Origin: Syntrophobacterales bacterium
GTDB taxonomy: Bacteria; Desulfobacterota; Syntrophia; Syntrophales; CAMTWB01
DNA length: 49,212 nucleotides
Reading direction: 5' to 3'
Assembly (NCBI GenBank): GCA_037445955.1
Contig: JBBIJM010000007.1
Coordinates: 1 to 49,212 of the forward strand
Below are positions 24,831 through 40,958 of the stretch, piece by piece. The position numbers were made by a program, and so were the translations under genes. The notes below the pieces were generated by a model. That model searched no databases, was not told where the DNA came from, and was given only the letters and a program-made list of their open reading frames with translations. Positions within the stretch are counted from its first letter, which is position 1. Each line of letters opens with the position of its first letter.

Positions 24831-24846
24831 AGGGAAGGTTCTTCCG

Positions 24847-26250
24847 ATGAGCAGGGGTAATGATAAATACCGACCGAAAATAGTTGTCATAGACGACGAC
24901 GATGCGACGAGATTATCCCTGGAACAGATGTTAAAGCTCCGCGGCTATGGCTGTGAGACGTTCATCTCCGCGGAGGCCGCTTTAGCCTGGCCCGGCCTTC
25001 CCGACGTCGATTCTATCATCGTCGATGTCAAAATGCCCGGCATGGACGGAGAAGAATTTCTCTCGGAGATTATCAGGCGGAATTATCCCCCGCCTCTTAT
25101 CATGATCACCGGTCACGGGGACGTTTCCATGGCGGTGCGCTGTCTGAAAACCGGTGCTTACGACTTCGTGGAAAAACCTTTTGAAGATGACGTCCTCCTG
25201 GCCTCCGTCGCCCGGGCCTGCGAAAAGACTTCCCTGAAAAGGGAAGGAGACGAACTGAGACGCCGTTTGAATATGTACACCGCTGCCGGCGAAGAGCGGT
25301 TCGGCATGGTGGGTCGCTGCCGGATTATGCAGGACGTCTTCGAACAGATCGAGGTTGCCGCAAAGACCGATCTGCCCGTTTTGATCATCGGTGAGACAGG
25401 AACAGGCAAGGAACTGGTCGCCCGGGCGATCCATAGCCTAAGTTCCCGCTCCAAAGGTCCCTTTATCGCCGTCAATGCCGGCGCCCTTCCGGAAAATCTT
25501 CTGGAAAGCGAACTCTTTGGTCACGCCCGGGGGGCCTTCACCGGGGCCGATAAAGCCAGAGACGGGAAACTTGTTACCGCAAGCGGGGGAACCCTGCTTC
25601 TCGACGAGGTGGAAAGCATCTCCGCCGCGGCCCAGGTAAAGCTGCTTAGGGTACTGGAAGACGGCCTGGTGTATCCGTTGGGCAAGGACGAACCGCAACG
25701 GGTAAACATCCGGCTTCTGGCCACCACCAAGATAAACCTCCAGGAGCTGGTCCGGGATGGAATTATGCGCAGGGATTTCTATCACCGGATTTTCGTTTTT
25801 TCGATCATGGTTCCCCCGCTCCGGGACCGGGCGGAAGATATTCCCCTTCTGATACCCCATTTCATCAAACTCTCCGCCGGCAGAAATAACATGCCCGTAC
25901 CGGAGGTCCCGGAGAGGATTCTCGAGACCATGTTACGGTTCCCATGGCCGGGCAATGTGAGACAACTTAAACACACCATCGAAAAGATGGTCATTACCTC
26001 GTCAAACCGGGTAATCGGTAATTTCTCCGAGGATATTGATTTTGATTCATCTCGACTGCTTTCCCTGCCCGTCACCCCCGGGAGGCTGAAGAATGAACTG
26101 GAAAAGACCGAAAAGGCGGTCATCGAGCAGGTATTGAGGGAAAACAGCGGCGAGATCAACCTAACCGCCCAGACCCTGGGCATTTCCCGGCGGGCCCTCT
26201 ACGAGCGGATGAAGAAATACAACCTCCCCAAGGAGCATTTTCGCAATTGA
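24847..26250 (+). CDS. Sigma54-dependent response regulator (NtrC/DctD family)
   Basis: REC domain (DDD, DVKMP, KP), GETGTGKE, GAFTGA, LLDE, WPGNVRQL and Fis-type HTH. Confidence 0.95.
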   Translation: MSRGNDKYRPKIVVIDDDDATRLSLEQMLKLRGYGCETFISAEAALAWPGLPDVDSIIVDVKMPGMDGEEFLSEIIRRNYPPPLIMITGHGDVSMAVRCLKTGAYDFVEKPFEDDVLLASVARACEKTSLKREGDELRRRLNMYTAAGEERFGMVGRCRIMQDVFEQIEVAAKTDLPVLIIGETGTGKELVARAIHSLSSRSKGPFIAVNAGALPENLLESELFGHARGAFTGADKARDGKLVTASGGTLLLDEVESISAAAQVKLLRVLEDGLVYPLGKDEPQRVNIRLLATTKINLQELVRDGIMRRDFYHRIFVFSIMVPPLRDRAEDIPLLIPHFIKLSAGRNNMPVPEVPERILETMLRFPWPGNVRQLKHTIEKMVITSSNRVIGNFSEDIDFDSSRLLSLPVTPGRLKNELEKTEKAVIEQVLRENSGEINLTAQTLGISRRALYERMKKYNLPKEHFRN

Positions 26251-26308: not shown

Positions 26309-27256
26309 TTATGAGACCTCCGGCTTCAACCAGAAGAGCATTTCAAGTTTTACCCCCTGATTCTTCTCTGAGGTAATAACCAGCTTATCGGTAAAGCGTT
26401 TGATATTTGCCAGCCCCATCCCCGCCCCAAAACCCAGGGATCTGATATATTCCGTGGCCGTCGAATAGCCAGGCCGCATGGCCTTTTCGATATCCTCTAT
26501 CCCCGCCCCCGAATCTTCCACAAAAACCACCACCGAATCGGAGGTGATACTCGCCGCAATCCTGCCCCATCCCCCTCCGTGGATCACCACGTTTACTTCC
26601 GCTTCATAGGTTGAGATGCTTATCTTCCTCACGATAATATCGGAAAAACCCTTTTCTTTGAGATAGTTCTTAAGCAGAGCCGATCCTTCGCCAGCCGCGG
26701 TGACATCCTGGTTGTCAATGAGATAGAGGAAATCCGGCTGGTTCTTGTCTATCTGATTCTGAATCAGGATCGAAAGGGGCGAATCCAGAACCTGGCGCCT
26801 TCTTTCATCATGGAGATAAAGGGCCGACAGCTTGGAAATTACCCCAAACAAAAGGTCAAGTTTAGTGATGATCCCGATGACCTTGTTGTTATCGTCCACG
26901 ACCGGATACCGTCCGAATCTGAAGGTGCTGATGTATTCTACAATCTTCTGTAAATCGTCGTTTTCATGGAGGCAGATGACCTTTTTCCTCCCCAGAACCT
27001 TAATCTTTTTCCTGATGTTATTCCCTTCAAGGGCCTTGATCAGGTCTTCCATAGTTACGATCCCGATAAGTTCGTTGGTATCGTCAACAATGGGAATTCC
27101 CGATATCTGCCTTCTTCTCATCACATCCTTGGCGTCGATCATAGTGTCGTTTTCTTTGAGCACGATCACCGTCGGATTCATGATGTCCTTTGCCTTAAGG
27201 TCCTCAAAAAACTCTTTATACTTCTCTATGATTGCGATTCCCAGATTTTCAGACAT
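26309..27256 (-). CDS. CBS-pair + RsbT/RsbW-like Ser/Thr kinase (HATPase_c) fusion
   Basis: Two CBS repeats (ISGIPIVD, GRYPVVD), then YEAEVNVVIH, DSGAGIEDI..AMRPGYST and GFGAGMGLANIKR. Confidence 0.88.
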   Translation of the reverse strand: MSENLGIAIIEKYKEFFEDLKAKDIMNPTVIVLKENDTMIDAKDVMRRRQISGIPIVDDTNELIGIVTMEDLIKALEGNNIRKKIKVLGRKKVICLHENDDLQKIVEYISTFRFGRYPVVDDNNKVIGIITKLDLLFGVISKLSALYLHDERRRQVLDSPLSILIQNQIDKNQPDFLYLIDNQDVTAAGEGSALLKNYLKEKGFSDIIVRKISISTYEAEVNVVIHGGGWGRIAASITSDSVVVFVEDSGAGIEDIEKAMRPGYSTATEYIRSLGFGAGMGLANIKRFTDKLVITSEKNQGVKLEMLFWLKPEVS

Positions 27257-27733
27257 CGACTGCCCTCGTGATTATATCAAAGATTCTTTTCCTCTTATGC
27301 AACTTATGTTCCTTCTCCATGGCCTTAGGCAGCCTCCCTGTCGAGGTAAATGACACCTCCCGGGCTGGTTGCCCGTCTTTTATCCCGTTATCCTGATTTA
27401 TTTTTTACGATGAAAGTCGCTTGTTTTGGGAAAAGCCCATTTCACCATAAGGATCTCTCGACGATTATTGGGCATAATTCTCCCGGCCGGCCGTAAGACA
27501 ACGTAACTTTTTGCATAATAATATCCTTTTATTGCAATTCTACTGATCCCCTCCAAATGAGCCACGGGAGATATGTGCCCACAGCCCGCCCCTTCTGTTC
27601 CTTCCGAAAGGTTATATTTTTCGCCTTCTTAATATCTCAGATTGTCAACATTCCTATTGATTCTCATTGAATTATAATTGCCGCTGACGTGAAAACCCCA
27701 GAATCCCCTGGGATACATCGAGGTAGAACAATC

Positions 27734-27750
27734 TTGGCAAGGGTATTGCT
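27734..27750 (+). promoter_or_regulatory. Sigma54 (-24/-12) promoter of the hydrogenase operon
   Basis: TTGGCAAGGGTATTGCT has GG (27736-37) and GC (27748-49) at canonical spacing, 70 bp before the hydC ATG. A sigma54 activator is encoded nearby. Confidence 0.8.
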
Positions 27751-27820
27751 TATATCGGATGAAACCCAGGCTACTGTTGTGCCGGTTTAAGGGAACGACC
27801 AATTTTAAGGAGCGAGGGAT

Positions 27821-28342
27821 ATGAACGTTACTGCAGAAAGCGCGCCATGCCATTGTAATTGTAATGTATCAGCGGAGGAGGCGGAGCTCTTTTCCAGACT
27901 TGATGAGGTTCTCTGCGATTATCAAGGGAGGCCTGGAGCCCTGATCCCGGTTCTACAGTGCGCCCAGGCTATTTTCGGCTACCTTCCCGAGGGGGTCATT
28001 AAAAAAATTTCCGAAGGTTTGTCGAAATCCTACAGTGAAGTATCGGGGGTTATAGGATTCTATTCATTCTTCTCAACTGTTCCCAGGGGAAAGCATCTGA
28101 TAAGGGTTTGCATGGGTACGGCCTGTTACGTGCGCGGAGGCAAGCAGGTTTTGGATTCCCTGAGAAAGGAATTGAAGATCGATGTCGGTCAAACAACCGC
28201 GGACAGGATGTTTTCTCTTTCCGTGGTACGCTGTATCGGGGCCTGCGGTTTAGCCCCGGCAGTCATGGTAAGCGACCAGGTTCACGAGCGGGTAAAGCCC
28301 ATCAAGATCAAGCAGATGCTGGAGGCCCATGCCTCCGCTTAA
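27821..28342 (+). CDS. hydC: [FeFe]-hydrogenase NuoE-like [2Fe-2S] subunit (HydC/HndA)
   Basis: ALIPVLQ.AQ..FGYLP, FYSFF, CMGTACYVRG and CIGACGLAP. Confidence 0.92.
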   Translation: MNVTAESAPCHCNCNVSAEEAELFSRLDEVLCDYQGRPGALIPVLQCAQAIFGYLPEGVIKKISEGLSKSYSEVSGVIGFYSFFSTVPRGKHLIRVCMGTACYVRGGKQVLDSLRKELKIDVGQTTADRMFSLSVVRCIGACGLAPAVMVSDQVHERVKPIKIKQMLEAHASA

Positions 28343-28516
28343 AGGCGATCTCCAGAAGGTCTTGCCAGGGGAATCTTGGTATCTATGGAAATAGGGCAAG
28401 TTCAATCTTATTCCCGTAACTTTGATGGAACTGATCCCAATCCCGGGATCCCGGTGGTAAGCGGGCAGATCTCAGGATTCGGCGAGTCGGAAGATGAAGA
28501 AGAAAACACAGGTTTG

Positions 28517-28939
28517 ATGACAAATAACAATCCGGACAAGATAACCGCTTGCGAAGGGGAATCTAAGGCGCCTTCGGCAAGCCTCACCCTTAGGGAAATA
28601 TGCGAAATCCTCGATGCGGAAGTCCTGGTGGGAGAGGATGAACTCGATCTGGAAATAAAGGGGGCGTTTGCCGCCGATTTGATGAGCGATGTCCTTGCTT
28701 ACGCAAAATCCGGCTGCCTCTTGATTACCGGTCTTACGAACCCTCAGATATTTAGAACGGCAGACGTCTTGGACATTGCCGCCGTGATCGTCGGGAGGGG
28801 GAAAAGGCCTTCTCCTGAAGCCCTGGAGTTGGCGAAGGCATTGAGTATCCCCCTTTTAACTACCAGATACATCCTTTTTGAAATAGCGGGCCGTCTTTTT
28901 GCCCGGGGAATCAGGGGATGCATTGAAAAGACTGACTGA
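28517..28939 (+). CDS. DRTGG-domain protein 1
   Basis: LREICEILDAEVL, FAADLMSDVLA, LLITGLTN, RGK.P. Start uncertain (28376-28517). Confidence 0.82.
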   Translation: MTNNNPDKITACEGESKAPSASLTLREICEILDAEVLVGEDELDLEIKGAFAADLMSDVLAYAKSGCLLITGLTNPQIFRTADVLDIAAVIVGRGKRPSPEALELAKALSIPLLTTRYILFEIAGRLFARGIRGCIEKTD

Positions 28940-28944
28940 AGGCA

Positions 28945-29283
28945 ATGGTTATCCTGCGGACTATAGTTGATGTCTTGAATCTTCAGGTGAGAGTCGGCGA
29001 AGATAAACTCTCTGTACCGGTAACAGGCGGGTATGCAGGAGATCTTCTAAGCGATGTAATCGCCAACAGCGAAGAGGGCCAGATCTGGATCACCCGTCAG
29101 ATTCATCAGAATATCGTGGCGGTCGCCGGTCTGAAGAATCTTGCCGGCATTATTCTCGTCCGGGGAAGCGAACCGACCGCGGACACCCTGAAAAAGGCCG
29201 CCCAGGAGGGAATCCCGATGATGGTAACCGATATGTCCTCTTTCGAAGTTGCCGGTCGGATTTATAATATTTTGAGAGCATAG
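28945..29283 (+). CDS. DRTGG-domain protein 2
   Basis: GGYAGDLLSDVIA, IWITRQIHQNIVAVA and SFEVAGRIY. Confidence 0.85.
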   Translation: MVILRTIVDVLNLQVRVGEDKLSVPVTGGYAGDLLSDVIANSEEGQIWITRQIHQNIVAVAGLKNLAGIILVRGSEPTADTLKKAAQEGIPMMVTDMSSFEVAGRIYNILRA

Positions 29284-29297
29284 GCTTTTTGATTGCG

Positions 29298-30035
29298 ATG
29301 CTGAGGAGGTTTCGCTGCGATCTACATATCCATACCTGTCTTTCACCTTGCGGCGATTTGACCATGAGCCCCCGGGCCATAGCGGACGCCGCGGTAGCGC
29401 AAGGTCTGGATCTGATAGCAATTTGTGACCATAATGCCTCGGGAAACGTACCCTACGTGATCGAGGCAGCCAGGGGACGGCCCCTGGTGGTAATTCCGGG
29501 AATGGAAGTAACCAGCAGCGAAGAAGTTCACACCCTGGCGCTCTTTGACAATTTGGATAGGCTTTCCGCCCTTCAGAGGCTTGTAGATGACCATCTCTTC
29601 GGCACCAATCGGGAGGAGATGTTCGGCTGTCAGGCCATCGTCAATGAACTCGATTACGTAGAGGGTTTTGAAGAGAAGTTTCTTCTGGGGGCAACGACCA
29701 TATCCCTTGCCGATCTGATCAAGGAGATTCATCTCTTGGACGGACTGGCCATAGCCTCTCATATCGATCGGGAGAGCTACAGCGTCCTTAGTCAGCTGGG
29801 TTTTATTTCTCCCGATTGCCCCTTCGACGCCTTGGAAGTAACCCGGCGGATGGGAAGGAAAAGGGCGCTGTCCGAATATCAGCAACTGGCAGGCTATCCC
29901 TTTCTCGAGTCTTCCGATGCCCACAATCTGGAAGAAATAGGCCGCGGCAGATCCCTGATCGTCATGAGCGAAGGAACGATACCGGAGCTTAAAATGGCTC
30001 TAAACAATCTCTCAGGAAGGCGGATAGAGGATTGA
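29298..30035 (+). CDS. PHP-domain phosphoesterase
   Basis: DLHIHT, AICDHN, PGME, EEVH, ASHIDR and SSDAH. Confidence 0.9.
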   Translation: MLRRFRCDLHIHTCLSPCGDLTMSPRAIADAAVAQGLDLIAICDHNASGNVPYVIEAARGRPLVVIPGMEVTSSEEVHTLALFDNLDRLSALQRLVDDHLFGTNREEMFGCQAIVNELDYVEGFEEKFLLGATTISLADLIKEIHLLDGLAIASHIDRESYSVLSQLGFISPDCPFDALEVTRRMGRKRALSEYQQLAGYPFLESSDAHNLEEIGRGRSLIVMSEGTIPELKMALNNLSGRRIED

Positions 30036-30038
30036 GTT

Positions 30039-30587
30039 ATGCTGGAGCTGTCCCTCCATATCCTGGATATAGCGGAGAACTCGACCCGTTCCGGAGCCAG
30101 GACAATCCTCGTTGAGATAAAGGAGGATCCCCTGGCAAACCTTCTTACCTTAAAGATCAGCGACGACGGCGCCGGCATGGCCGAAGATACTTTGAAAAGG
30201 GTTGCCGATCCCTTCTTCACCACGAAAACCGTCCGGAAGGTGGGATTGGGACTGCCGCTGCTTAAGCAGGCCGCCGAGGCCGCGGGGGGCGGGATGTCTG
30301 TCTCCTCCGAGATGGGCAAGGGGACAACGGTCGCCGCCTCCTTTATGCTCGACCATCTTGACCGGCAACCTCTTGGGGACATGGGCCAAACGATGGTTAC
30401 CCTGGTGGCGGGCAGTCCGGAGACGAATTTCATCTATCGCCACCTTCGTAACGGAGGCCAATACGTTATAGATACCGGTGAAATTAAAAAAGAACTGGGG
30501 AACATTCCGATAAATAACGCCCAGGTGCTCGGCCTCATTCGATCCGATATTGAAGAGGGCTTAAGAGAGATCGGGGCCATAGGTTAA
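30039..30587 (+). CDS. Stand-alone HATPase_c (histidine-kinase-like ATPase) protein
   Basis: ELSLHILDIAENS, DDGAGM, DPFFTTK and GLGLPL. No HisKA domain. Confidence 0.88.
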   Translation: MLELSLHILDIAENSTRSGARTILVEIKEDPLANLLTLKISDDGAGMAEDTLKRVADPFFTTKTVRKVGLGLPLLKQAAEAAGGGMSVSSEMGKGTTVAASFMLDHLDRQPLGDMGQTMVTLVAGSPETNFIYRHLRNGGQYVIDTGEIKKELGNIPINNAQVLGLIRSDIEEGLREIGAIG

Positions 30588-30679
30588 CGAAGAGAAAAAA
30601 CGGGGATTCAGAGGAATAAACTTATTATACCGGCAGTTGCGGTAATAGCTATCACATTCATCAGACAGGGGAGCGATCT

Positions 30680-31048
30680 ATGGCAAGAATTACAGTAGGG
30701 GATTTGAAAAAGATCAAGGAGAGGGTTCATAATGAAACAGCTTTAAGAGAGGGTGTCCATCGGGCCAAGGTGACGGTACACATGGGAACCTGCGGAATTG
30801 CCGCGGGAGCCAGAGGAGTCATGGATTCCCTGATGGGCGAAATTGCCGCAGCCGGGATATCGGATGTGGTGGTTACAACCTCCGGCTGTGCCGGTCTTTG
30901 CAGTCAGGAACCGATGCTTACGGTTGAGATGACCGGGGAGGAACCGATCGTCTACAGCAAAATCGACGGCAATAAAATGAGACAGATTTTTAAAGGGCAT
31001 ATCCTGGGTGGGGTAGTTCAGAGTCAGTTTGCCCTGGCGAAAGGCTGA
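30680..31048 (+). CDS. hydD: Thioredoxin-like [2Fe-2S] ferredoxin subunit (HydD/HndB)
   Basis: HMGTCGIAAGAR and TSGCAGLCSQEP; immediately before hydB. Confidence 0.85.
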   Translation: MARITVGDLKKIKERVHNETALREGVHRAKVTVHMGTCGIAAGARGVMDSLMGEIAAAGISDVVVTTSGCAGLCSQEPMLTVEMTGEEPIVYSKIDGNKMRQIFKGHILGGVVQSQFALAKG

Positions 31049-31107
31049 TTATAAACCGTGCGTAAATTCGATCAGGATATTAACAAGTCAAGGAGGATAT
31101 TATCCAC

Positions 31108-34100
31108 ATGAAGGTGTTTCGATCTCATTTATTGCTCTGTGGAGGTACCGGTTGTCACGCTTCAGGGTCCCAAGCTGTAAAGGCTGCCCTCATCGACCAG
31201 ATCAACAAGAAAGGGCTCGGGGAAGAGGTTAAGGTTGTAGAGACCGGTTGTAACGGCTTCTGTGCCCAGGGGCCTATCCTGGTAGTCTACCCGGAGGGCG
31301 TGGTTTACATGTCTTTGAAACCGGAGGATATGCCGGAGCTCGTGGAAGAGCATTTTATCAAGGGTAGGATAGTTCAAAGGCTGCTCTACCGTGAACCCCT
31401 CTCTAAAGAGGTGATCCCGGCGATGAAAGACATCCCCTTCTTCGCCCTTCAGGAACTGAGGGTTCTGCGTAATCGAGGGATTATCGATCCGGAGGTTATC
31501 GACGAAGCCATAGCTAGAGACGGTTATGCCGGCATGGCCAAGGCGTTGACCGAAATGACCCCGGAGGCGATCATAAAGGAAGTCCTCGATTCAGGACTCA
31601 GAGGACGGGGAGGGGCCGGCTTCCCCACGGGGCTCAAGTGGAGGTTCTGCTCCCAATCTCCGGGAAATATTAAATACGTCATCTGTAACGCCGACGAGGG
31701 CGATCCGGGCGCCTTCATGGATAGAAGCGTCCTGGAAGCCGATCCCCATGCGGTCATCGAAGGCATGGTAATCGCCGCCAAGGCCATCGGATCAAGCCAC
31801 GGTTACATTTACTGCCGGGCTGAATACCCCCTGGCGATTCACCGCCTCAATATCGCCACCGCCCAGGCCAGAGAGTACGGCCTCCTGGGTCAAAACATCT
31901 TAGGAACGGGCTTCAATTTCGATCTGGATATCTACCAGGGCGCCGGGGCCTTTGTCTGCGGCGAAGAAACGGCCCTCATGACTTCCATCGAAGGCAAGCG
32001 GGGAATGCCGAGGCCAAGGCCCCCCTTCCCTGCCCTCTCCGGCCTCTGGCAGAAACCATCCATCTTGAATAACGTCGAGACCTTTGCCAATATCGGCCAG
32101 ATAATCCATAAAGGCGCCTCGTGGTACAACTCGATCGGAACGGAAAAAAGTAAGGGGACCAAGGTATTTGCCTTAACGGGAGACGTCAACAATATCGGTC
32201 TTGTAGAAGTCCCCATGGGCATTCAGTTAGGGGAGATCATCTATGAGATCGGCGGCGGCATCCAGAAGGGAAAGAAATTCAAGGCCGCCCAGCTGGGCGG
32301 ACCATCCGGCGGATGCATCCCGGCGGCCCATTTGAACACCCCGGTTGATTTTGAGAAGGTAACAGAGCTCGGAGCCATAATGGGTTCCGGAGGCCTGATT
32401 GTTCTTGACGAAGACAAATGCGCCGTCGATGTGGCCCGCTTCTTCATGGATTTCGTACAGGAAGAATCCTGCGGGAAATGCCCCCCCTGCCGGGTAGGCA
32501 CCAAGCGGATGCTCGAGATGATTACCGACATCTGCAACGGCAAAGGTAAGGAAGGCGATATAGAGAAGCTCATCGAGCTTGGAAATAGCATCAAAGACAC
32601 TGCCCTCTGCGGTCTCGGCCAGACTGCCCCAAACCCCGTCTTGTCAACCATCCGCTACTTCAGAGACGAGTACGAGGCCCACATTGTAGAGAAACGATGC
32701 CCTGCAGGAGTTTGTCCTGAGCTGGTACGCGCCCCCTGTCAGAATGCCTGTCCTGCAGGCGTTGACGTACCGGGGTTCGTTTCTCTCGTGGGAGAAGAGC
32801 GTTATTCTGAAGGTCTTAAGTTACATCGTGAAAGAAATCCCTTCGCTGAAATCTGTGGCCGAATATGTTTCCATCCCTGCGAGAGCAAGTGTCGCCGTTC
32901 AAGTCTCGATGAGCCTCTCGCCATCAGGCAGGTAAAGCGTTTCATGACGGGTATGGAGAAGGAACCTCTCCTGCCTGAATTCAGAGCAAGTGAAATAAAC
33001 GCAACGAGAAAGATTGCTATCGTAGGCGCCGGTCCTGCCGGACTCTCCTGCGCCTACTTCCTGGCCCGCCTGGGTTACAAACCCCAGGTCTTCGAGGCCG
33101 CCCCCCGGGCAGGCGGGATGATGGTTCAGACCATCCCGGAATATCGTCTCCCCCGCCAGGCCATCGAGAAAGAGGTCAAGATGATCGAAAACACCGGGGT
33201 GAAGATCAATTACGGCTCCCGGCTGGGCCGCGACTTTACCCTCTTGAGCCTTAGAGATCAGGGCTATGAGGCGGTATTTCTCGGTGTCGGCGTTCCCTAC
33301 GGCAGCAAAATGGGCATCCCCGGGGAGGACCTCATCGGGGTAACCGACGCAATCAGCTACCTAAGAGAATACAATCTCACCGGGAAGGCCCCGGCAGGCA
33401 ACAACGTCGTCGTCATCGGCGGCGGCAATGCGGCAATCGACGCCGCCCGGACGGCCTTAAGGCTGGGCGCCAAGGAAGTAACCCTCCTCTACAGAAGGAC
33501 AAGATTCGAAATGCCCGCCTGGGCCGAAGAGATTCACGAGGCGGAGATCGAAGGGGTAAAGCTGAATTTCCTTGTCGCTCCGATAGAAGCGGTTTCTCTA
33601 AACGGCAGGGTAAGCGCCCTGAAGTGCGCCAAAATGGAGCTGGGTGACTATGACCGCTCCGGCAGGAGACGCCCGGTTGCGGTGAAAGGAAAGGATTTCG
33701 AGGTCAAGGCGGATTTGGTTATCTCCGCCATCGGTCAATATCTTGATGAGAAGGAAATATTCGCCGGTCTCAATGTCGAAACGAACAAGAGCGGGTATGT
33801 CAAGGTGGATCCCCTCTGTGCTCGAACATCGATCGAGTGGCTCTACGCCGGCGGCGATGTCACCGTCGGCCCCTCTTCAGTGGTCGAGGCTATCGCCTGG
33901 GGTGAAAAGGCCGCGGTTGGAATAGATCAGGCCCTAACCGGGACCGACAACGCCTTCTGGCGAAAAGAAAAGGTTCTCGATACCTTCTTCGATCCCGACG
34001 CCGATCCGATCGATGCGAAGAGAGCTCCTCTTTTGAACCTTTCCCTTTCTGAGAGAATGGGCAACTTCAAAGAGGTCGAAAAGGCACTGCCCGCCGCTTC

Positions 34101-34155
34101 CGCGGTCTGCGAGGCCAAGCGGTGTCTCCGCTGCGATTACCGAGCCGAAAGCTAA
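31108..34155 (+). CDS. hydB: NuoF-like FMN/NADH subunit (HydB/HndC) fused to a GltD/NfnB-like FAD-NAD(P)H domain
   Basis: N-terminal [2Fe-2S], LRGRGGAGFPTG, NADEGDPGAFMD, CGEETAL, GGPSGG, ESCGKCPPCR. Then PCQNACP, CGRICFHPCESKCRR, VGAGPAG, IGGGNAAID, YRRT and EAKRCLRCD. Confidence 0.92.
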   Translation: MKVFRSHLLLCGGTGCHASGSQAVKAALIDQINKKGLGEEVKVVETGCNGFCAQGPILVVYPEGVVYMSLKPEDMPELVEEHFIKGRIVQRLLYREPLSKEVIPAMKDIPFFALQELRVLRNRGIIDPEVIDEAIARDGYAGMAKALTEMTPEAIIKEVLDSGLRGRGGAGFPTGLKWRFCSQSPGNIKYVICNADEGDPGAFMDRSVLEADPHAVIEGMVIAAKAIGSSHGYIYCRAEYPLAIHRLNIATAQAREYGLLGQNILGTGFNFDLDIYQGAGAFVCGEETALMTSIEGKRGMPRPRPPFPALSGLWQKPSILNNVETFANIGQIIHKGASWYNSIGTEKSKGTKVFALTGDVNNIGLVEVPMGIQLGEIIYEIGGGIQKGKKFKAAQLGGPSGGCIPAAHLNTPVDFEKVTELGAIMGSGGLIVLDEDKCAVDVARFFMDFVQEESCGKCPPCRVGTKRMLEMITDICNGKGKEGDIEKLIELGNSIKDTALCGLGQTAPNPVLSTIRYFRDEYEAHIVEKRCPAGVCPELVRAPCQNACPAGVDVPGFVSLVGEERYSEGLKLHRERNPFAEICGRICFHPCESKCRRSSLDEPLAIRQVKRFMTGMEKEPLLPEFRASEINATRKIAIVGAGPAGLSCAYFLARLGYKPQVFEAAPRAGGMMVQTIPEYRLPRQAIEKEVKMIENTGVKINYGSRLGRDFTLLSLRDQGYEAVFLGVGVPYGSKMGIPGEDLIGVTDAISYLREYNLTGKAPAGNNVVVIGGGNAAIDAARTALRLGAKEVTLLYRRTRFEMPAWAEEIHEAEIEGVKLNFLVAPIEAVSLNGRVSALKCAKMELGDYDRSGRRRPVAVKGKDFEVKADLVISAIGQYLDEKEIFAGLNVETNKSGYVKVDPLCARTSIEWLYAGGDVTVGPSSVVEAIAWGEKAAVGIDQALTGTDNAFWRKEKVLDTFFDPDADPIDAKRAPLLNLSLSERMGNFKEVEKALPAASAVCEAKRCLRCDYRAES

Positions 34156-34175
34156 GACAAAAGGAGATCATACCT

Positions 34176-35954
34176 ATGCCAAAACTTACCGTAAACAACA
34201 TTGAAGTAAACGTTCCCGCCGGAACGACCATCCTTGATGCGGCCCGGGAAATCGGGATCAAGATTCCCACCTTGTGCTACCTGAAGGATCTCCAGGCGAT
34301 AGGCGCCTGCCGGATGTGTGTGGTTGAGGTGGAGGGAGCCAAGACACTGTCCGCCGCCTGCGTCACCCCGGTCGTCGAGGGAATGGTTGTCCAGACCAAC
34401 AGCACCCGGGCCAGGGAAGCCAGAAAAACTGTATTGGAACTGATCCTCTCGGAGCACAACGGCGACTGTCAAATCTGCAGCCGCTCTGAGGATTGCGAGC
34501 TCAAATCAATGGCCAATGATCTGGGTATTAAAGAGGTGTTTTACGAAGGCGAGAAGACCAGATCAATCATCGATGATTCTACCCCGGCCCTCGTGCGGGA
34601 TACGGGGAAGTGTATCAACTGTCAGCGCTGCGTCACCGTCTGCAGCGAGGTGCAAAGCGTCACCGCCCTGTTCCCTCAAAACCGGGGATTTGAAACTATC
34701 ATCGGGCCCCCGGTAAACACCAACCTGGCGGGAGTCTCCTGCGTCCAGTGCGGTCAATGTTCCGCCGTCTGTCCCGTCGGGGCGATTACCGAGAAAAACG
34801 ACATCGACCGGGTTTGGGCCGCCATCAACGATCCCGACACCTTGACCATCGCCCAGACCGCCCCGGCTATTCGGGCGGCGGTGGGTGAAGGTTTCGGCAT
34901 GCCGGCGGGAACCCTGGCCACCGGCAAAATGGTCGTGGCCCTGCGCCGTTTGGGCTTTGACTACGTCTTCGATACGGAATTTACCGCCGACTTAACGATC
35001 CTCGAGGAAGGAACCGAACTCCTAACCAGGCTCAAAAACAAGCTAGTCGAGGGCGGCGATGCCAAATTGCCCCTCTTTACCAGCTGTTGTCCCGCCTGGA
35101 TAAAATTTTCCGAATATAACTACCCGGAACTTCTTGATAACCTCTCCACCTGCAAGTCTCCCCAGCAGATGTGCGGGGCGGCGGTGAAGACTTACTACGC
35201 CAAGAAAATAGCGAAACATCCCAAAAACATCTTCGTCTGCTCGATCATGCCCTGTACGGCCAAGAAGTACGAGGCTCAGCGGCCGGAAATGGAAAGCAGC
35301 TGGACCAGAGATGTGGACGTTGTCCTTACCACAAGAGAGTTTGCCAAGATGGCCAAAGAGGCGGGGATTGACTTTGTCAACCTTCCCGACGATCAGATGG
35401 ACGCCCCTCTTGGCCTGGCCACCGGCGCCGCCGATATCTTCGCCAACACCGGCGGGGTTATGGAGGCAGCCCTGCGCACCGCCTACGAACTGGTCACGGG
35501 AAGGGTTTTACCCTACGATAAGATGCATGTGCTGCCCATCCAGGGTTTGGAGGGGGTCAAGGAGGCCTCCATCAAGATCGAAGGCGCCGTTCCCGACTGG
35601 TCATTCCTCGAAGGGGCAACGCTCAACATCGCCGTAGTCCACGGCCTGGCCAATGCCCGCAAGGTGGTAGAGGCGGTAAAATCCGGCGAGAAGAACTACC
35701 ACTTCATCGAGGTGATGACCTGTCCCGGCGGCTGCATAGGCGGCGGCGGCCAGCCTCGCTTCACCACTATGGAGATCAGAAAGGCGAGGATTCAGGCTAT
35801 TTACAAGGAGGACGAGTTCAAGGAGCTCCGTAAATCCCACGAGAATCCCGACGTAATTAAGATCTACAAGGAATTCTTTACCAGCCCCCTGTCCCATAGA
35901 TCCCACAGCTTCCTCCATACCCACTATAAACATAGGGGCCGGTACGAAAGTTAA
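34176..35954 (+). CDS. hydA: [FeFe]-hydrogenase catalytic subunit, group A ([2Fe-2S], His-[4Fe-4S], 2x[4Fe-4S], H-cluster)
   Basis: H-cluster motifs TSCCPAW, MPCTAKKYE and EVMTCPGGCIGGGGQ; HNGDCQIC; two CxxCxxC ferredoxin motifs. AAGGAG precedes ATG 34176. Confidence 0.97.
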   Translation: MPKLTVNNIEVNVPAGTTILDAAREIGIKIPTLCYLKDLQAIGACRMCVVEVEGAKTLSAACVTPVVEGMVVQTNSTRAREARKTVLELILSEHNGDCQICSRSEDCELKSMANDLGIKEVFYEGEKTRSIIDDSTPALVRDTGKCINCQRCVTVCSEVQSVTALFPQNRGFETIIGPPVNTNLAGVSCVQCGQCSAVCPVGAITEKNDIDRVWAAINDPDTLTIAQTAPAIRAAVGEGFGMPAGTLATGKMVVALRRLGFDYVFDTEFTADLTILEEGTELLTRLKNKLVEGGDAKLPLFTSCCPAWIKFSEYNYPELLDNLSTCKSPQQMCGAAVKTYYAKKIAKHPKNIFVCSIMPCTAKKYEAQRPEMESSWTRDVDVVLTTREFAKMAKEAGIDFVNLPDDQMDAPLGLATGAADIFANTGGVMEAALRTAYELVTGRVLPYDKMHVLPIQGLEGVKEASIKIEGAVPDWSFLEGATLNIAVVHGLANARKVVEAVKSGEKNYHFIEVMTCPGGCIGGGGQPRFTTMEIRKARIQAIYKEDEFKELRKSHENPDVIKIYKEFFTSPLSHRSHSFLHTHYKHRGRYES

Positions 35955-35986
35955 GGGGAGCCAAAGAGGGGGTGCGGATATATAAT

Positions 35987-36129
35987 TAGGGGCTTGAGCC
36001 TGCTGCGGATAGCTTAGGGAGGGATCTCATGTTGATTCTCACACTCGGGTTACATTACATCTCCCTTTCCTTGGGCGGCTGCTTTGCTGACGAATAATCT
36101 TCCTAACCGTCGCCGCTGGCTCACCCCTA
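35987..36129 (+). other. Long imperfect inverted repeat / structured intergenic RNA candidate
   Basis: Nested pairings TAGGGG/CCCCTA, TGAGCC/GGCTCA and TTAGGGAG/CTTCCTAA. Confidence 0.5.
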
Positions 36130-36250
36130 TTGTTTTCCCTTCGCTTAAGCGGAGGGTGGAACGTGACGGTCCGATACCTCTATGATCAGGCGCCCCCTTT
36201 TCAAGGAGGACAAAGGGGACAAATCAAAAAAATGAATGAGGAGCTAAAAA

Positions 36251-36634
36251 ATGAAAGGGAAAAAGATTTTATTAGTTGACGACGATATCGATCTGATCTC
36301 CGCCATTACCCTGGTGCTTACCAATAGCGGATATGAGGTAACATCCGCCTATAACGGCAAGGAAGGCTTCAAAAAAGCCCAGGCCGAGCAGCCTGATCTG
36401 ATTGTTCTTGATGTTATGATGTCCACCCATTCCGAGGGCTTCGATATAGCCAGGGATTTGAGAAAGGTTGAGGCAACGAAAAAGACGCCGATTATCTTGC
36501 TTACCTCGGTAAACACGACGGTGCCTTTCAAGTTCGAACCGGATGCAACATATCTTCCGGTTAATATTTTCCTCGAGAAGCCGGTAACTCCCGCTGATCT
36601 TCTTGTCCAGATCAAGAAGGTTCTGGGAGACTGA
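36251..36634 (+). CDS. Single-domain response regulator (receiver only)
   Basis: ILLVDDD, PDLIVLDVMM, LT and KP. Confidence 0.93.
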   Translation: MKGKKILLVDDDIDLISAITLVLTNSGYEVTSAYNGKEGFKKAQAEQPDLIVLDVMMSTHSEGFDIARDLRKVEATKKTPIILLTSVNTTVPFKFEPDATYLPVNIFLEKPVTPADLLVQIKKVLGD

Positions 36635-36704
36635 TCCGGCCGGCTTTTTCGCGGGGAGTTTTTTCCGCTATCGGAAATCAGTTCATTTATTTTACCTCAC
36701 CACC

Positions 36705-36738
36705 GGCCTGCCCCGCCGTCTTGGCGGGGCAGCCTTTA
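36705..36738 (+). terminator. GC-rich hairpin between receiver and hybrid kinase genes
   Basis: ctgccccgcc-gtctt-ggcggggcag perfect 10-bp stem with a short T3 tail. Confidence 0.5.
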
Positions 36739-36755
36739 GTATCAATTCAAAACGA

Positions 36756-38240
36756 ATGATGAATACAAATCCCGCGCCCCGGATACTTGTGGTCGATGAC
36801 GAACTGGGCATCAGGGAAGGATGTCGAAGGATCCTTTGCGCGGAAGGTTTCGAGGTTGACCTGGCCGAAGACGGCCTCGGCGGTTACGAGAAGCTCAAGG
36901 CCAACCGGGATTACGCGGCGGCCCTGATAGATTTGAAATTGCCGGGAATGAACGGACTTGAGCTGATAGAAGAGATCCGCAAGATCGATAATGATATAAC
37001 CCTTTTTATAATTACCGCCAACGCCACCATCGAAACCGCCGTAGAGGCGACTAAACGGGGCGCCTACAACTACATTCCCAAACCCTTCACCCCGGAGGAG
37101 TTGTTACTGGCCCTTCGCAACGGCCTGGAAAAAAGATCTCTTGCCCTGGAGGCAAGAAGGTCAAACGAACAGAGAGAAAAACAACTACTCGAGCTGGCCT
37201 TCGAGCGTTCCAAAAGCAAGTCGATCTTGAATTGTATGACCGACGGCGTGATCGTTGTCAATAGACAAAGGCAGATCGTCCTTAGAAATTCCGCCGCCTC
37301 GCGGATCATTACCGAACTGGCGGGATTCAACATGCCCGCTTCTCTGGATGAGGCAATCAAGAACCAGGATCTTAAGGAACTGCTCGTCGATATCCTTGAG
37401 ACAACCACGGACAATGTAATCAGAACCAAAGAGATCACCCTTGATAAAAGCACCTACATGGCAAACGCGACCCCTCTTTATAGTCTTGACCGGGAGAATC
37501 TGGGTGTAGTCACCGTCCTTAGGGATATAACCGCTCTTAAGAAACTGGAGATCGCCAAATCGATGTTTGTCTCGATGGTGGCCCATGAGGTGAAGAGACC
37601 TCTTACCTTCATAGAGAACAAACTGGCCTCTGTTTTTGAGAACATCAAAGACAACGAATTGGCCGAGGAGAAGGAAATCCTCTGCGGGGCCGTAAACCGC
37701 CTCAACCTCTTAAATACCATGGTCGATGAGTTGATATCCCTTGCCGCCATAGAAACGGGACAGTTTGCCCTAAAGCGCTCCTCTGTAAACATCGAACAGA
37801 TAATTGCCCAGGTATTGCAATCTGAAGAACATAATGCTAGGCTAAAAGATATCCACCTCTCGGTAAGGATTGATGAATCAATAAAAGGGGAGCAGGTCTT
37901 AGCCGACGGGAAGGCGATGGCGGTCGTCTTTGGGAATCTGGTCGATAACGCCATAAAGTATACCCCGACAGGAGGAAAGATTGAGGTAGGGATTGACAAC
38001 GGGGGGATTTACATAACGGTCTCGGTAAAAGATAACGGGATCGGGATGTCGGAAGATGAAAAGGAAAGGGTTTTTGAGGATTTTTACCGGGTTAAGAATG
38101 AATACACCGTCAACGTTCCGGGCACCGGTCTAGGTCTTAGTCTCGTAAAGCGCTTCATTGATCTTCACAATGGTAGAATCTCCGTCCAGAGTCAGCCCGG
38201 ACTGGGCTCGATTTTCAAGGTCAGTCTCCAGAAAATCTAA
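36756..38240 (+). CDS. Cytoplasmic hybrid histidine kinase (REC-PAS-HisKA-HATPase)
   Basis: ILVVDDE..DLKLP..KP, DGVIVVN PAS domain, VAHEVKRPL, NAIKY, DNGIG and GTGLGL. Confidence 0.92.
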   Translation: MMNTNPAPRILVVDDELGIREGCRRILCAEGFEVDLAEDGLGGYEKLKANRDYAAALIDLKLPGMNGLELIEEIRKIDNDITLFIITANATIETAVEATKRGAYNYIPKPFTPEELLLALRNGLEKRSLALEARRSNEQREKQLLELAFERSKSKSILNCMTDGVIVVNRQRQIVLRNSAASRIITELAGFNMPASLDEAIKNQDLKELLVDILETTTDNVIRTKEITLDKSTYMANATPLYSLDRENLGVVTVLRDITALKKLEIAKSMFVSMVAHEVKRPLTFIENKLASVFENIKDNELAEEKEILCGAVNRLNLLNTMVDELISLAAIETGQFALKRSSVNIEQIIAQVLQSEEHNARLKDIHLSVRIDESIKGEQVLADGKAMAVVFGNLVDNAIKYTPTGGKIEVGIDNGGIYITVSVKDNGIGMSEDEKERVFEDFYRVKNEYTVNVPGTGLGLSLVKRFIDLHNGRISVQSQPGLGSIFKVSLQKI

Positions 38241-38301
38241 AAGTGAAACCCTTTAAAAAGCCGGGTTGATTTACCGGATATGTAATATCAAAAGGATTAA
38301 T

Positions 38302-39720
38302 ATGACCGCATATCAAGATTTTATAGATGACTCTTACATCGAAGGATTAATCCGGGCAAAACAGCCGGAACCCGGTGAATTGAAGGAGATTCTGGCGAAG
38401 GCAAAACTCAAGAGAGGTCTTTGTCCGGAAGATACGGCCAGGCTCTGCAATCTCCAGAGCCCCGATCTGCTCGAGGAGCTCTTTGAAACGGCAAGAAGCA
38501 TAAAGAAAGATATCTACGGTAACCGGATCGTCTTTTTCGCCCCTCTCTACGTGAACAACTTTTGCGAAAATAACTGTTCTTATTGCGCCTTTCGGGAGTC
38601 CAATACGCTGGTGGCGCGCCATAGCCTCTCCGATTGCGAGCTCGTAGAGGAGGTAAAACTTATCCAGAAGCAGGGGCATAAACGGATCATCCTGGTTTTC
38701 GGAGAATCTCCCCTTTCCCCCGCCCAAGTCATTTCGGAGACCGTTAGGAAGGTTTACGAAATCAAGACCTATAACGAGACGGGAACGGAAATAGGAAGCA
38801 TCAGGAGGATCAACATCAATGCGGCACCTCTGGATGTGGAGGATTACCGAATAGTCAAGTCTGCCGGGATCGGCACCTTTCAGGTATTCCAGGAAACATA
38901 CCATAAAGAGACCTACAGAAAGGTTCATCCCAAAAACACCAGGAAAGGTGACTATCACCGCCGGCTTTTTTCCCTCCATACCGCTCAGGAGGGCGGAATC
39001 GACGATGTAGGGATCGGGGCACTTTTCGGCCTTTATGACTGGCGTTTTGAAGTGGTCTCGCTCATCTGCCATGCCAGGTCTTTGGAAGAACACTTCGGGG
39101 TCGGACCGCATACCATTTCCTTTCCCCGGATCGAGCCGGCCTTCAATACGGCCTTTGTCAACCACATGCCCTTCAAGGTAAGTGATGATGATTTCAAGAA
39201 GATCATCGCCATCATAAGGCTTGCCGTTCCTTACACCGGGCTTATCCTGACCTGCCGGGAAACCGCTGAGGTGAGAAACGAGGTGATCAAGCTCGGGGTA
39301 TCCCAGATAGACGCCGGCTCCAGGATAGGGATCGGCGGTTACACCGAGGCGGCAAAGAGGCAGAGATCGGCCGATAAGGAACAGTTTCGGCTCGGAGACG
39401 ACCGCTCTTTAAACGAGGTAATAGACGGCCTGCTTGCGGAAGAATATATCCCTTCTTTCTGTACCGCCTGCTACCGTCTGGGTCGAACGGGAGAACATTT
39501 CATGGAGCAGGCCAAACCGGGCTTCATCAAGAGCTTTTGCGAACCGAATGCGATGCTTACCTTTTATGAGTACCTGCTTGATTATGCCCCCGCCGAAACC
39601 GTAAGAAAAGGAGAGGAGTTGATTAATCGCCTGCTTCCCGGGCTCGAAGAACGGATCATGGAGACGACCAGACAAAGACTGGCCGAACTTAAAAACGGCC
39701 GCCGGGACCTGTATCTGTAA
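38302..39720 (+). CDS. hydG: [FeFe]-hydrogenase maturase, radical SAM
   Basis: FAPLY..N.CENNCSYC, FQETYH, GPHTISFPR and C-terminal CTAC...C auxiliary cluster motif. Confidence 0.95.
   Translation: MTAYQDFIDDSYIEGLIRAKQPEPGELKEILAKAKLKRGLCPEDTARLCNLQSPDLLEELFETARSIKKDIYGNRIVFFAPLYVNNFCENNCSYCAFRESNTLVARHSLSDCELVEEVKLIQKQGHKRIILVFGESPLSPAQVISETVRKVYEIKTYNETGTEIGSIRRININAAPLDVEDYRIVKSAGIGTFQVFQETYHKETYRKVHPKNTRKGDYHRRLFSLHTAQEGGIDDVGIGALFGLYDWRFEVVSLICHARSLEEHFGVGPHTISFPRIEPAFNTAFVNHMPFKVSDDDFKKIIAIIRLAVPYTGLILTCRETAEVRNEVIKLGVSQIDAGSRIGIGGYTEAAKRQRSADKEQFRLGDDRSLNEVIDGLLAEEYIPSFCTACYRLGRTGEHFMEQAKPGFIKSFCEPNAMLTFYEYLLDYAPAETVRKGEELINRLLPGLEERIMETTRQRLAELKNGRRDLYL

Positions 39721-40073: not shown

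Positions 40074-40957
<884 letters not shown>

Positions 40958-40958
<1 letters not shown>

Follow-up and report, generated by a model that had tools for sequence, protein, structure and literature searches.

A HydABC-lineage [FeFe]-hydrogenase locus with a GltD-like NADP(H) module in place of the C-terminal HydB domain

The hydrogenase locus and its fused HydB subunit

The window analyzed here is a stretch of 49,212 nucleotides from a Syntrophobacterales bacterium (assembly GCA_037445955.1, contig JBBIJM010000007.1, positions 1 to 49,212 of the forward strand). Its plus strand harbours an operon-like gene row, 27821-39720, which runs from hydC to hydG and is delineated by the list of open reading frames (ORFs) and by Pfam and NCBIfam profiles. 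Within this row, a single ORF of 1015 amino acids (31108-34155, +; termed P0001 below) joins the HydB subunit of an [FeFe]-hydrogenase (residues 1-542, 31108..32733, from Pfam and PDB sequence matches) to a GltD-like module with sites for NADP(H) and flavin adenine dinucleotide (FAD) (residues 541-1015, 32728..34155, from PDB sequence matches, AlphaFold2 (AF2) and Foldseek). The next gene is hydA, coding for the group A [FeFe]-hydrogenase catalytic subunit. An earlier description of this DNA, which was made from the letters alone and is called the sequence-only reading here, had placed the fused ORF at 31108-34155 and a hydA ORF at 34122/34176-35954, and had quoted a series of HydB and GltD motifs. 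Both ORFs exist, and every one of the motifs is located in P0001. The window proteins were searched with Pfam and NCBIfam profiles and matched by sequence and by fold (Foldseek) to PDB chains.

The HydB half comprises an N-terminal [2Fe-2S] domain, a domain for flavin mononucleotide (FMN) and NADH, an SLBB domain, the N3/B1 [4Fe-4S] four-helix bundle and a Zn-hinge. Pfam recognizes 2Fe-2S_thioredx at residues 5-81, Complex1_51K at 160-329 (E 1.8e-45), SLBB at 353-402 and NADH_4Fe-4S at 441-525 (E 4.5e-35); the N-terminal [2Fe-2S] site consists of C11, C16, C48 and C52, and the ligands of the Zn-hinge are C438, H525, C531 and C536. The motifs ADEGDPGAFM (195-204, including A202 and M204), KVF (352-354, including F354) and GGPSG (397-401) are markers of bifurcating-type HydB (Losey 2020, PMC7311640). 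According to the same study, non-bifurcating HydB subunits contain Thr/Ser and Lys/Ser/Ala at the positions of T. maritima HydB 232 and 234 and Tyr at 367, and they lack GGPSG and the extra clusters; the B2-B5 sites are likewise missing from non-bifurcating relatives (Li 2025, PMC11829005). An assignment of P0001 to the non-bifurcating, NADH-dependent HydB type of S. wolfei/S. aciditrophicus therefore fails on A202, M204, F354 and GGPSG.

Conservation was assessed in two alignments, one of 14 diverse and one of 34 closer fusions (A1 and A2), and by a motif check in 11 fusions from several phyla. The motifs of both halves are kept in all 11 fusions compared, both alignments show conservation of the FMN loop, of ADEGDPGAFM and of the N3/B1 cysteines, and C438, H525, C531 and C536 are invariant or nearly so throughout. 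The same holds for cysteines 11, 16, 48 and 52 among the 34 closer fusions; the N-terminal [2Fe-2S] domain is missing from several of the 14 diverse ones. Since the Zn-hinge, the N-terminal cluster and the marker residues are kept, P0001 is a bifurcating-type HydB in all but its ferredoxin-reducing domain.

In canonical enzymes the mobile C-terminal 2x[4Fe-4S] domain of HydB, which holds the clusters B3 and B4, is the part that reduces ferredoxin. This domain swings on a Zn2+ “hinge” bound by three Cys and one His (Furlan 2022), and T. kivui HydABC deprived of B3/B4 loses bifurcation (Li 2025, PMC11829005). In P0001 the domain is gone. Residues 1-542 match HydB of the A. mobile NiFe-HydABCSL complex (7t2r_B, residues 1-542 of 597, 832 bits) as well as 7q4v_B, 8a6t_B and the A. 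woodii, T. kivui and T. maritima HydB chains, with 49-68% identity to the solved chains, and all these matches end at residue 542. Beyond C536, the cysteine list of P0001 contains no CxxCxxCxxxC pair or ferredoxin-type Cys motif. A canonical BfuB of 629 amino acids encoded in the same genome is 56% identical to P0001 up to ‘...YFRDEYEAHI.E.RCPA.VC.EL’; past the hinge, the paralogue runs into CxxCxxCxxxCP, whereas P0001 runs into ‘RAPCQNACP’, the start of a Fer4_20 domain. The GltD Fe-S domain begins 8 residues past the last Zn-hinge ligand, where B3 begins in canonical HydB. Because the paralogue diverges only right after the hinge motif, the exchange point coincides exactly with the boundary of the C-terminal 2x[4Fe-4S] domain. 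The proposal of the sequence-only reading that this domain is replaced by a complete FAD/NADP(H)/2x[4Fe-4S] module is thus borne out by the alignments to PDB chains and to the BfuB paralogue, which also define the boundary. No solved chain in the PDB spans both halves, either by sequence or by fold (best Foldseek TMq 0.46).

The appended module contains Fer4_20 (residues 535-618, E 1.7e-20, with the match beginning at profile position 23) and Pyr_redox_2 (635-930, E 9e-32). Its FAD site, GAGPAG, is present at residues 640-645, the NADPH site consists of GGGNAAID (771-778) and YRR (795-797), and CLRC (1006-1009) forms a permuted C-terminal tail. The cluster ligands are C544, C548, C587, C591, C595, C1006 and C1009 together with K610; the seven conserved cysteines and the lysine match the pattern of StnC, where one cluster is held by three Cys and a Lys and the other by four Cys. 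By sequence, the best-scoring PDB chains are 9bov_A (411 bits), 9n5u_A (386), 8oh5_C (352) and 4ylf_B (299), and residues 541-1012 align to the NADPH domains of C. saccharolyticus NfnA (9bov_A 101-567), S. ovata StnC (8oh5_C 101-568) and T. sibiricus NfnA. K610 aligns with StnC K170, the Lys ligand of cluster C7 (Glu in NfnB), V554 with StnC C114, and R680 with StnC R239 and NfnB R201. The roles of the StnC residues are those given by Kumar et al. 2023 (PMC10482914). The stretch from GGGNAAID to YRR is the same as in StnC and NfnB, enzymes solved with NADPH, and its residues G771, G772, G773, N774, A776, Y795, R796 and R797 are invariant or nearly so in the 34 homologues of alignment A2.

The order of segments in the module also follows StnC. 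The C-terminal stretch ‘...NFKEVEKALPAASAVCEAKRCLRCD’ of P0001 pairs in the alignments with the first 40 residues of T. maritima NfnB and P. furiosus NfnL, its tail ‘..F.EV....EA.RCLRCD’ matching 4ylf_B 4-43 and 5jca_L 8-46, and in StnC and NfnA the same tail aligns with the C-terminal end of the module. Compared with NfnB, the GltD module is thus circularly permuted, as it is in Stn/NfnABC, which explains both the CLRC tail and the Fer4_20 match that begins at profile position 23. In Foldseek the module superimposes with root-mean-square deviations of 3.5-4.0 Å on NfnA/StnC and of 1.9-2.3 Å on NfnB/NfnL, and the AF2 model reaches block confidences (pLDDT) of mostly 82-96 over residues 560-950, with two blocks at 77-78. 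Accordingly, of the earlier label ‘GltD/NfnB-like’ the first part stands, as the GltD-like module is complete, and the second does not, since the module is permuted and Lys-liganded: it carries the permuted module, the Lys cluster ligand and the NADPH site that characterize the Stn/Nfn-Bfu enzymes, and it is of the Stn/NfnABC type rather than of the NfnB bifurcating-FAD type. A bifurcating FAD as in NfnB is rejected as the best description on the grounds of Lys610 and the permutation. An assignment as the large subunit of NfnSL fails, because residue 610 is Lys instead of Glu, the CxxC is C-terminal and NfnA is encoded on another contig together with its own NfnB. Among the neighbouring genes in the window, no glutamate synthase large subunit adjoins the fusion.

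An assembly or frameshift artefact can be dismissed: the same open frame occurs in all of the 120 best protein clusters described below and in three genomes of the same family, where the operon order is also that of the window. A mosaic similarity pattern was observed within P0001, with a breakpoint near residues 500-540. Residues 1 to about 500 are nearest to fusions from genomes of the same order (80-90% identity in 60-residue windows); beyond about residue 510, P0001, as well as HydA, is nearest to fusion loci from metagenome-assembled genomes (MAGs) labelled Verrucomicrobiota (L026), Thermoleophilia (L030) and Spirochaetaceae (L034) and from an unclassified MAG (L027), at 65-82% vs 40-52%. 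The pattern and an unusual gene order with hydC first are common to the three same-family genomes, and for this reason the mosaic resembles the result of an ancient swap of modules where the domains meet rather than an assembly chimera.

HydA (34176..35954, +; 592 amino acids from its ATG) scores 873 bits against the NCBIfam model FeFe_hydrog_A6 (cut-off 765) and matches the Pfam domains Fe_hyd_lg_C (E 1e-96) and Fe_hyd_SSU. The H-cluster motifs TSCCP, MPCTAKK and CPGGC are intact, and the cofactor sites comprise a [2Fe-2S] cluster, a His-ligated [4Fe-4S] cluster, 2x[4Fe-4S], the H-cluster domain and the small-subunit domain. The subunit therefore shows the group A catalytic domain, H-cluster motifs and NuoG-like cluster chain expected of a Bfu/HydABC (HydDB A3) enzyme. 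As AAAGGAG sits eight bases before the ATG at 34176, this codon is the likely start of hydA rather than the GTG at 34122 of the ORF list.

The operon begins with hydC (27821..28342, +), which encodes a NuoE-like, thioredoxin-like [2Fe-2S] protein (Pfam 2Fe-2S_thioredx, E 2.6e-47). All of its cluster cysteines (Cys97, 102, 138 and 142) are present, matches to NCBIfam models of the HoxE/NuoE type stay under their cut-offs, and a Cys/His-rich CHCNC at residues 10-14, ahead of the NuoE-like domain, is unusual. Four genes follow on the plus strand that are presumably regulatory, namely two DRTGG genes (28376-28939 and 28945-29283), a PHP gene (29289-30035) and an HATPase_c gene (30039-30587), all assigned by Pfam; the DRTGG/PHP/HATPase set is also found beside fused and canonical HydABC loci elsewhere. 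The hydD-like gene (30680..31048, +), which is kept directly upstream of the fusion in many loci, encodes a thioredoxin-fold ferredoxin of 122 amino acids that matches NCBIfam fdxn_Clost under the cut-off (E 5e-7) and has no Pfam match. It contains just three cysteines (38, 70 and 74), and a canonical four-Cys [2Fe-2S] site is not evident.

Between hydA and hydG lie genes for a response regulator (36251-36634, +) and a hybrid PAS histidine kinase (36603-38240, +), both assigned by Pfam, which may, judging from their position, have a role in the hydrogenase system. The row ends with hydG (38266..39720, +), the H-cluster radical-SAM maturase (NCBIfam TIGR03955, 476 bits, cut-off 312), a gene that is located 3' of hydA in the same-family genomes, too. 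A promoter and terminator scan of 27200-36700 yielded counts that match the shuffled expectation (8 vs 7.0 and 11 vs 11.1), and hence gives no evidence on the limits of the operon. On its 5' side (23649-26250), a sensor kinase and a sigma-54-dependent response regulator are encoded, and on its 3' side (40074-45642) the housekeeping genes glyQ and glyS and a membrane pyrophosphatase (1321 bits to the sodium-translocating type).

Distribution of the fusion and its partner subunits

The sequence-only reading had stated that NuoF-GltD fusions occur in anaerobe genomes, and they turn out to be widespread. A word-indexed search of protein clusters with the junction (residues 430-760) as query gave 8000 scored candidates, of which the best 120 were examined. 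All of these cover 99-100% of the query at 70-100% identity, and most are 1010-1065 amino acids long. Their source names include Smithellaceae, Phycisphaerae, Planctomycetota, Pirellulales and ‘Deltaproteobacteria’, and their annotations range from ‘NuoF’ and ‘FAD-dependent oxidoreductase’ to ‘hydrogenase’ and ‘Ferredoxin--NADP reductase’. In an exhaustive search of the cluster representatives, full-length fusions extend down to 34-36% identity. Stand-alone GltD-like representatives of 489-519 amino acids (P0060, P0083 and P0102) are probably fragments, as two of the three share clusters with members of 1034-1052 amino acids.

Among species-representative genomes, 589 stretches encode a relative; 80 loci were kept and classified by tblastn. 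A contiguous fused junction is found in 55 of these, and the other 25 match in part or belong to the Stn type or to canonical HydABC. The gene that follows the fusion varies: an [FeFe] HydA with H-domain in 17 of the 55 loci, a NuoG-like subunit plus the small and large [NiFe] subunits in 9, an FdhA-like protein in another 9 and a NuoG-like protein alone in 4. The A-like gene is located upstream instead in 6 loci, nothing recognisable lies downstream in 4, and a contig end cuts the fused gene in 6. The type of the [NiFe] partner was confirmed by Pfam at one locus, L057. The MAGs with the 17 [FeFe] loci are labelled Verrucomicrobiota, Phycisphaerae, Actinomycetota/Thermoleophilia, Spirochaetaceae, Armatimonadetes, Thermovenabulum, Deltaproteobacteria, Firmicutes, Candidatus Nitricultor lacus and Rhodothermaceae, and several are unclassified ‘uncultured bacterium’ MAGs. 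Variants coexist within one lineage: a Thermovenabulum sp. MAG contig (NZ_JBNARB010000001.1) carries a locus with fusion and HydA (L039) and a separate Stn-type locus (L095), and another Thermovenabulum MAG harbours a canonical HydABC locus (L099).

In the order of the window, which was sampled with 121 genomes including its own, a junction-spanning match is present in at least 99 genomes, as judged from 150 of 661 match rows. The HydA H-domain is matched at E <= 1e-40 in 42 genomes, and at least 27 encode fusion and HydA no more than about 3 kb apart on one strand of one contig. From this order, 20 loci were picked by hand, mostly ones without an adjacent HydA and thus not a random sample. 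They share the conserved unit DRTGG-PHP-HATPase-HydC-HydD-HydB/GltD, which is followed by nothing recognisable in 8 loci, by [NiFe] HydA'SL in 2 and by a tandem of [FeFe] HydA and [NiFe] HydA'SL in another 2; FdhA is located downstream of the unit in 1 locus and upstream in 1. In L120 and L121 (genomes G041 and G059), one HydC-HydD-HydB/GltD set precedes first the [FeFe] HydA and then the NuoG-like and [NiFe] subunits, and in L111, L112 and L057 the [NiFe] set alone comes after HydC-HydD-HydB/GltD. Gene content thus suggests that the [NiFe]-paired loci would encode a HydABCSL-like enzyme with an NADPH-module HydB. Because [FeFe] HydA, [NiFe] HydA'SL, FdhA or nothing can follow the same unit, the fusion appears to be a modular core that is not peculiar to one hydrogenase. 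The order also encodes, in many copies, proteins of 640-680 amino acids in which an N3-cluster bundle (NADH_4Fe-4S) is combined with Fer4_20 and Pyr_redox_2.

The genome of the window itself (2.29 Mb, 150 contigs, 97.5% complete) contains one other Fe_hyd_lg_C match, which is of the sensory type and fused to a histidine kinase, so that no catalytic [FeFe]-hydrogenase was found besides the window HydA. In the sensory protein (G000:C19:23791-27193, L015) the hydrogenase domain is joined to HisKA/HATPase, and a response regulator and another kinase follow; together with the response regulator and the kinase between hydA and hydG, this system could provide H2-responsive regulation. There are four NuoF-like genes including the fusion. 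The second is the canonical BfuB with its Fer4 tail, adjoining NuoE and a selenocysteine (Sec)-type FdhA split by an in-frame stop (G000:C6:10421-15488, L013), the third belongs to a NuoEF pair beside MvhD, HdrA and HdrBC-like genes (G000:C6:41665-48920, L014), and the fourth to a NuoEF pair adjoining CdhD. Canonical NfnAB is encoded elsewhere in the genome, and fragments of [NiFe] large subunits are found at contig ends.

Electron wiring and alternative readings

The locus is proposed to encode a multimeric [FeFe]-hydrogenase of the HydABC (Bfu) lineage, composed of HydC, the HydD-like protein, the HydB-GltD fusion and HydA. NAD(H) would react at the FMN of HydB and NADP(H) at the FAD of the GltD module, which would function as an ordinary, non-bifurcating converter between two-electron and one-electron transfer. 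The two clusters of the module would join this FAD to the HydB core, i.e., the region of B1, FMN and the Zn site, and electrons would continue via the HydA cluster chain to the H-cluster; ferredoxin would not be a substrate at the former B3/B4 position. Among named relatives, MAGs with the label Smithellaceae are nearest to the host, in which the main task of the enzyme would be to release the electrons of NADH and NADPH as H2. We regard it as rather probable, by a modest measure, that the complex is a ferredoxin-independent [FeFe]-hydrogenase, which links H2 to NAD(H) at the FMN and to NADP(H) at the FAD. That one complex links H2 with both NAD(H) and NADP(H) had also been suggested by the sequence-only reading, reasonably so, given that a bifurcating-type HydB, HydC and an intact HydA are kept together with an NADP(H) module. 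The accompanying idea of a doubly bifurcating enzyme is disfavoured, because the module is of the Stn type and the FAD of StnC has been shown not to bifurcate, its electrons passing singly into the cluster chain (PMC10482914).

Several points weigh against a ferredoxin-independent enzyme wired in this manner. We infer the electron wiring, the nucleotide specificities (that of the FMN site included), the lack of ferredoxin coupling and the direction of operation. For the whole AF2 chain the predicted template modelling score (pTM) is 0.64, and the relative placement of the two halves is undefined. Eight of the 20 picked loci have no adjacent A subunit, and the core may thus have a function of its own, e.g., in transhydrogenation. 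The kept Zn-hinge, N-terminal [2Fe-2S] domain, HydC and HydD argue for continued use of gated machinery of the bifurcation type, which fits a simple enzyme with two entry sites poorly; non-bifurcating HydB has lost them (Schut 2022). Finally, the module clusters are homologous to the ferredoxin-reducing branch of NfnSL, and ferredoxin could still dock there.

A further relative bears on the wiring. A protein of 654 amino acids from the same order (L126, G014:C17, 2678-4642(-)) combines an N3-cluster bundle with a GltD module and neighbours a NuoG-like FdhA (ORF 3-2723(-)), which is split by an in-frame stop, presumably a selenocysteine codon. The protein is colinear with P0001 417-1012 at 39% identity, with a gapless junction and the same CLRC tail, and NCBIfam PRK12771 spans the junction in both proteins alike. 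It differs in that it lacks the FMN domain and the N-terminal [2Fe-2S] domain, and A, P, Y and V stand in for H525, C531, C536 and C438, so that the Zn-hinge ligands are gone. Together with its FdhA, it may resemble Geobacter SfrB/SfrA; SfrB and SfrA are given as homologues of the two halves of StnC by Kremp 2020. In the 654-residue protein, the electrons of NADPH could go only to the N3/B1-type cluster or the A subunit, and a module at this junction can thus feed the main chain. By analogy, this protein raises the odds that the FAD of P0001 is a second entry beside the FMN, and it makes us less confident that the module has simply taken over the gated, low-potential role of B3/B4. Against this, P0001 retains the hinge, the N-terminal cluster, HydC and HydD, none of which the FMN-less form has.

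NADH and NADPH may be used either in obligatory 1:1 coupling or independently. In the coupled case the Bfu mechanism would be intact, and two gated electrons would pass the GltD clusters and recombine on the FAD (2 H2 + NAD+ + NADP+ <-> NADH + NADPH + 2 H+). The position of the GltD Fe-S domain, exactly where B3 would begin, and the retention of B1, the Zn site, the N-terminal [2Fe-2S] domain, HydC, HydD and the marker residues fit this scheme, and so would the stoichiometry, with two one-electron carriers swapped for one two-electron acceptor. The energetics are favourable as well. The computed H+/H2 potentials are -296 mV at 10 Pa, -325 mV at 100 Pa and -355 mV at 1000 Pa, and physiological potentials are given as about -280 mV for NADH and -380 mV for NADPH (Schut 2022). 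A 1:1 confurcation of NADH and NADPH averages -330 mV and could therefore sustain a roughly ten-fold higher H2 pressure than NADH alone, i.e., up to about 100 Pa vs about 10 Pa or less; the canonical NfnAB of the genome could supply the NADPH. Yet, NADP+ needs no low-potential electron, bifurcation would dissipate energy in the H2-oxidising direction, and, as the FMN-less protein that shares the junction demonstrates, wiring of the module does not depend on a bifurcating core. Taking both sides together, we consider obligate coupling a serious possibility that is nevertheless unlikely.

The coupled scheme can be extended to the whole family: HydC-HydD-HydB/GltD would then be a general, ferredoxin-free Bfu core, in which gated electrons recombine on a non-bifurcating FAD and H2 or formate is obligatorily coupled to NAD(H) plus NADP(H), which plugs into [FeFe] HydA, [NiFe] HydA'SL or FdhA and occurs almost throughout one order of syntrophs. 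This generalization is tentative, and we rather doubt it. If it were true, the core would provide, in concert with NfnAB, an intermediate ‘gear’ with a net reaction of 3 NADH + Fd(red) -> 4 H2 (Fd(red), reduced ferredoxin) compared with 1 NADH + Fd(red) -> 2 H2, the demand for costly reduced ferredoxin at syntrophic H2 pressures would decrease, and many ‘confurcating HydABC/FdhABC’ annotations in metabolic models would be misassigned.

A continued dependence on ferredoxin is less probable still. Ferredoxin might dock on the distal cluster of the module as on NfnL, or else on the N-terminal domain of HydB, on HydC or on HydD, and the enzyme would then be a hydrogenase that incorporates an Nfn-like activity and couples H2 with ferredoxin, NAD(H) and NADP(H). 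In NfnSL, electrons reach ferredoxin via the pair of [4Fe-4S] clusters in NfnB/NfnL. This path fits the discussion in the Stn paper; moreover, two of the three parts of the Csac NfnABC trap, which is composed of the NfnB thioredoxin, NfnB C-terminal and NfnC C-terminal domains (PMC11829005), are kept in the window system, and the HydD-like protein with its ferredoxin fold is conserved beside the fusion. However, B3/B4, which all characterised Bfu enzymes need, are gone, the cluster ligand is the Lys of Stn and not the Glu of NfnL, and the StnC module does not itself reduce ferredoxin (PMC10482914). A module that serves NADH, another acceptor or redox sensing and regulation of an NADH-dependent hydrogenase, instead of bulk NADP(H), is most improbable: the GltD-like family is diverse, with the sulfide dehydrogenase SudA and the Fe(III) reductase subunit SfrB among the homologues in Kremp 2020, and the Vallitalea genome paper (PMC6163223) speculated on a link to glutamate metabolism, but the 2'-phosphate-type motif GxGxxA...YRR is invariant or nearly so in the 34 aligned homologues and matches that of enzymes solved with NADPH, and no glutamate synthase large subunit is adjacent.

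The assignment of electron carriers matters beyond this locus, since metabolic reconstructions routinely read ‘hydABC’ or ‘NuoEF + hydrogenase/FDH’ as NADH/ferredoxin-confurcating. If H2 or formate is coupled to NAD(H) plus NADP(H) instead, the electron carriers, the ATP costs of reverse electron transport and the threshold H2 pressures in such models change. The fusion is also a natural experiment on the Bfu mechanism, in which the low-potential acceptor domain has been swapped for a two-electron flavin site. Recombinant production of related HydABC and HydAB complexes has been achieved (Losey 2020; Furlan 2022), and the question is therefore directly testable.

Comparison with known redox complexes

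The architecture has been remarked on before. The 2018 genome paper on Vallitalea guaymasensis L81 (PMC6163223) notes it for a trimeric hydrogenase, the ‘second trimeric hydrogenase’ of that organism, which is known from genome annotation and is likened to the window system here by its description, not by sequence. A comparative Smithellaceae study of 2026 lists hydB, hndA and hndD, and its accessible parts do not comment on a fusion. In the accessible text of Schut 2022, no mention of GltD, NfnL, fusion or glutamate synthase was found. The open-access literature yielded no biochemical or structural study of a HydB-GltD hydrogenase, although BfuB variants of this kind may appear in the supplementary tables of Schut 2022; this agrees with the sequence-only reading, which knew of no characterised hydrogenase of this kind. 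The locus is thus a real, conserved and widespread HydABC/Bfu variant, the architecture of which has been noted and the biochemistry of which has apparently not been studied.

The [FeFe]-hydrogenases of HydDB group A2 (‘glutamate synthase-linked’, putative) resemble the window system in combining a HydA of group A with a GltD-like module for NAD(P)H. The A2 rule calls for a neighbour protein that has a GltD-type domain without NuoF, and the function of the group is listed as undetermined (PMC5037454). The HydDB classification put forward as a check by the sequence-only reading does not lead to A2, as P0001 holds NuoF and GltD in one protein upstream of hydA.

With NfnB/NfnL of NfnSL, the module shares the fold, two [4Fe-4S] clusters, the FAD, the NADPH site and the conserved Arg (R680). 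NfnB differs by its Glu ligand, its N-terminal CxxC and its partner NfnA/S, whereas P0001 has K610 and a C-terminal CxxC.

By sequence, the module is most similar to that of StnABC/NfnABC from S. ovata, C. saccharolyticus and T. sibiricus, with which it shares the permuted CxxC tail, the Lys ligand, the Arg near the FAD and the NADPH motif, and in both systems it is joined to a HydBC-type core. In Stn/Nfn-Bfu, however, the module sits inside the NuoG-like A subunit (StnC/NfnA) and feeds B1 via the A clusters, and the B subunit keeps B3/B4 and reduces ferredoxin without any hydrogenase. In the window, by contrast, the module is part of the B subunit, B3/B4 are gone and the A subunit is a true HydA.

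The system as a whole resembles the HydABC(D)/Bfu complexes of T. maritima, A. woodii and T. kivui and the NiFe-HydABCSL complex of A. mobile. A complete HydA with H-cluster and cluster chain, a NuoE-like HydC and a HydB half with FMN/NADH, B1, the N-terminal [2Fe-2S] (B5), Zn/B2 and the marker residues are all present, and the accessory DRTGG, PHP, HATPase and HydD genes are those of canonical HydABC loci. The difference lies in the C-terminal B3/B4 2x[4Fe-4S] domain, which P0001 lacks and in place of which it carries the NADP(H)-FAD module of about 475 amino acids. The definition of the Bfu family stresses the absolute conservation of the core cofactors (Schut 2022). The fusion enzyme falls outside the bifurcating family with respect to B3/B4, and it should not be filed as a standard confurcating HydABC.

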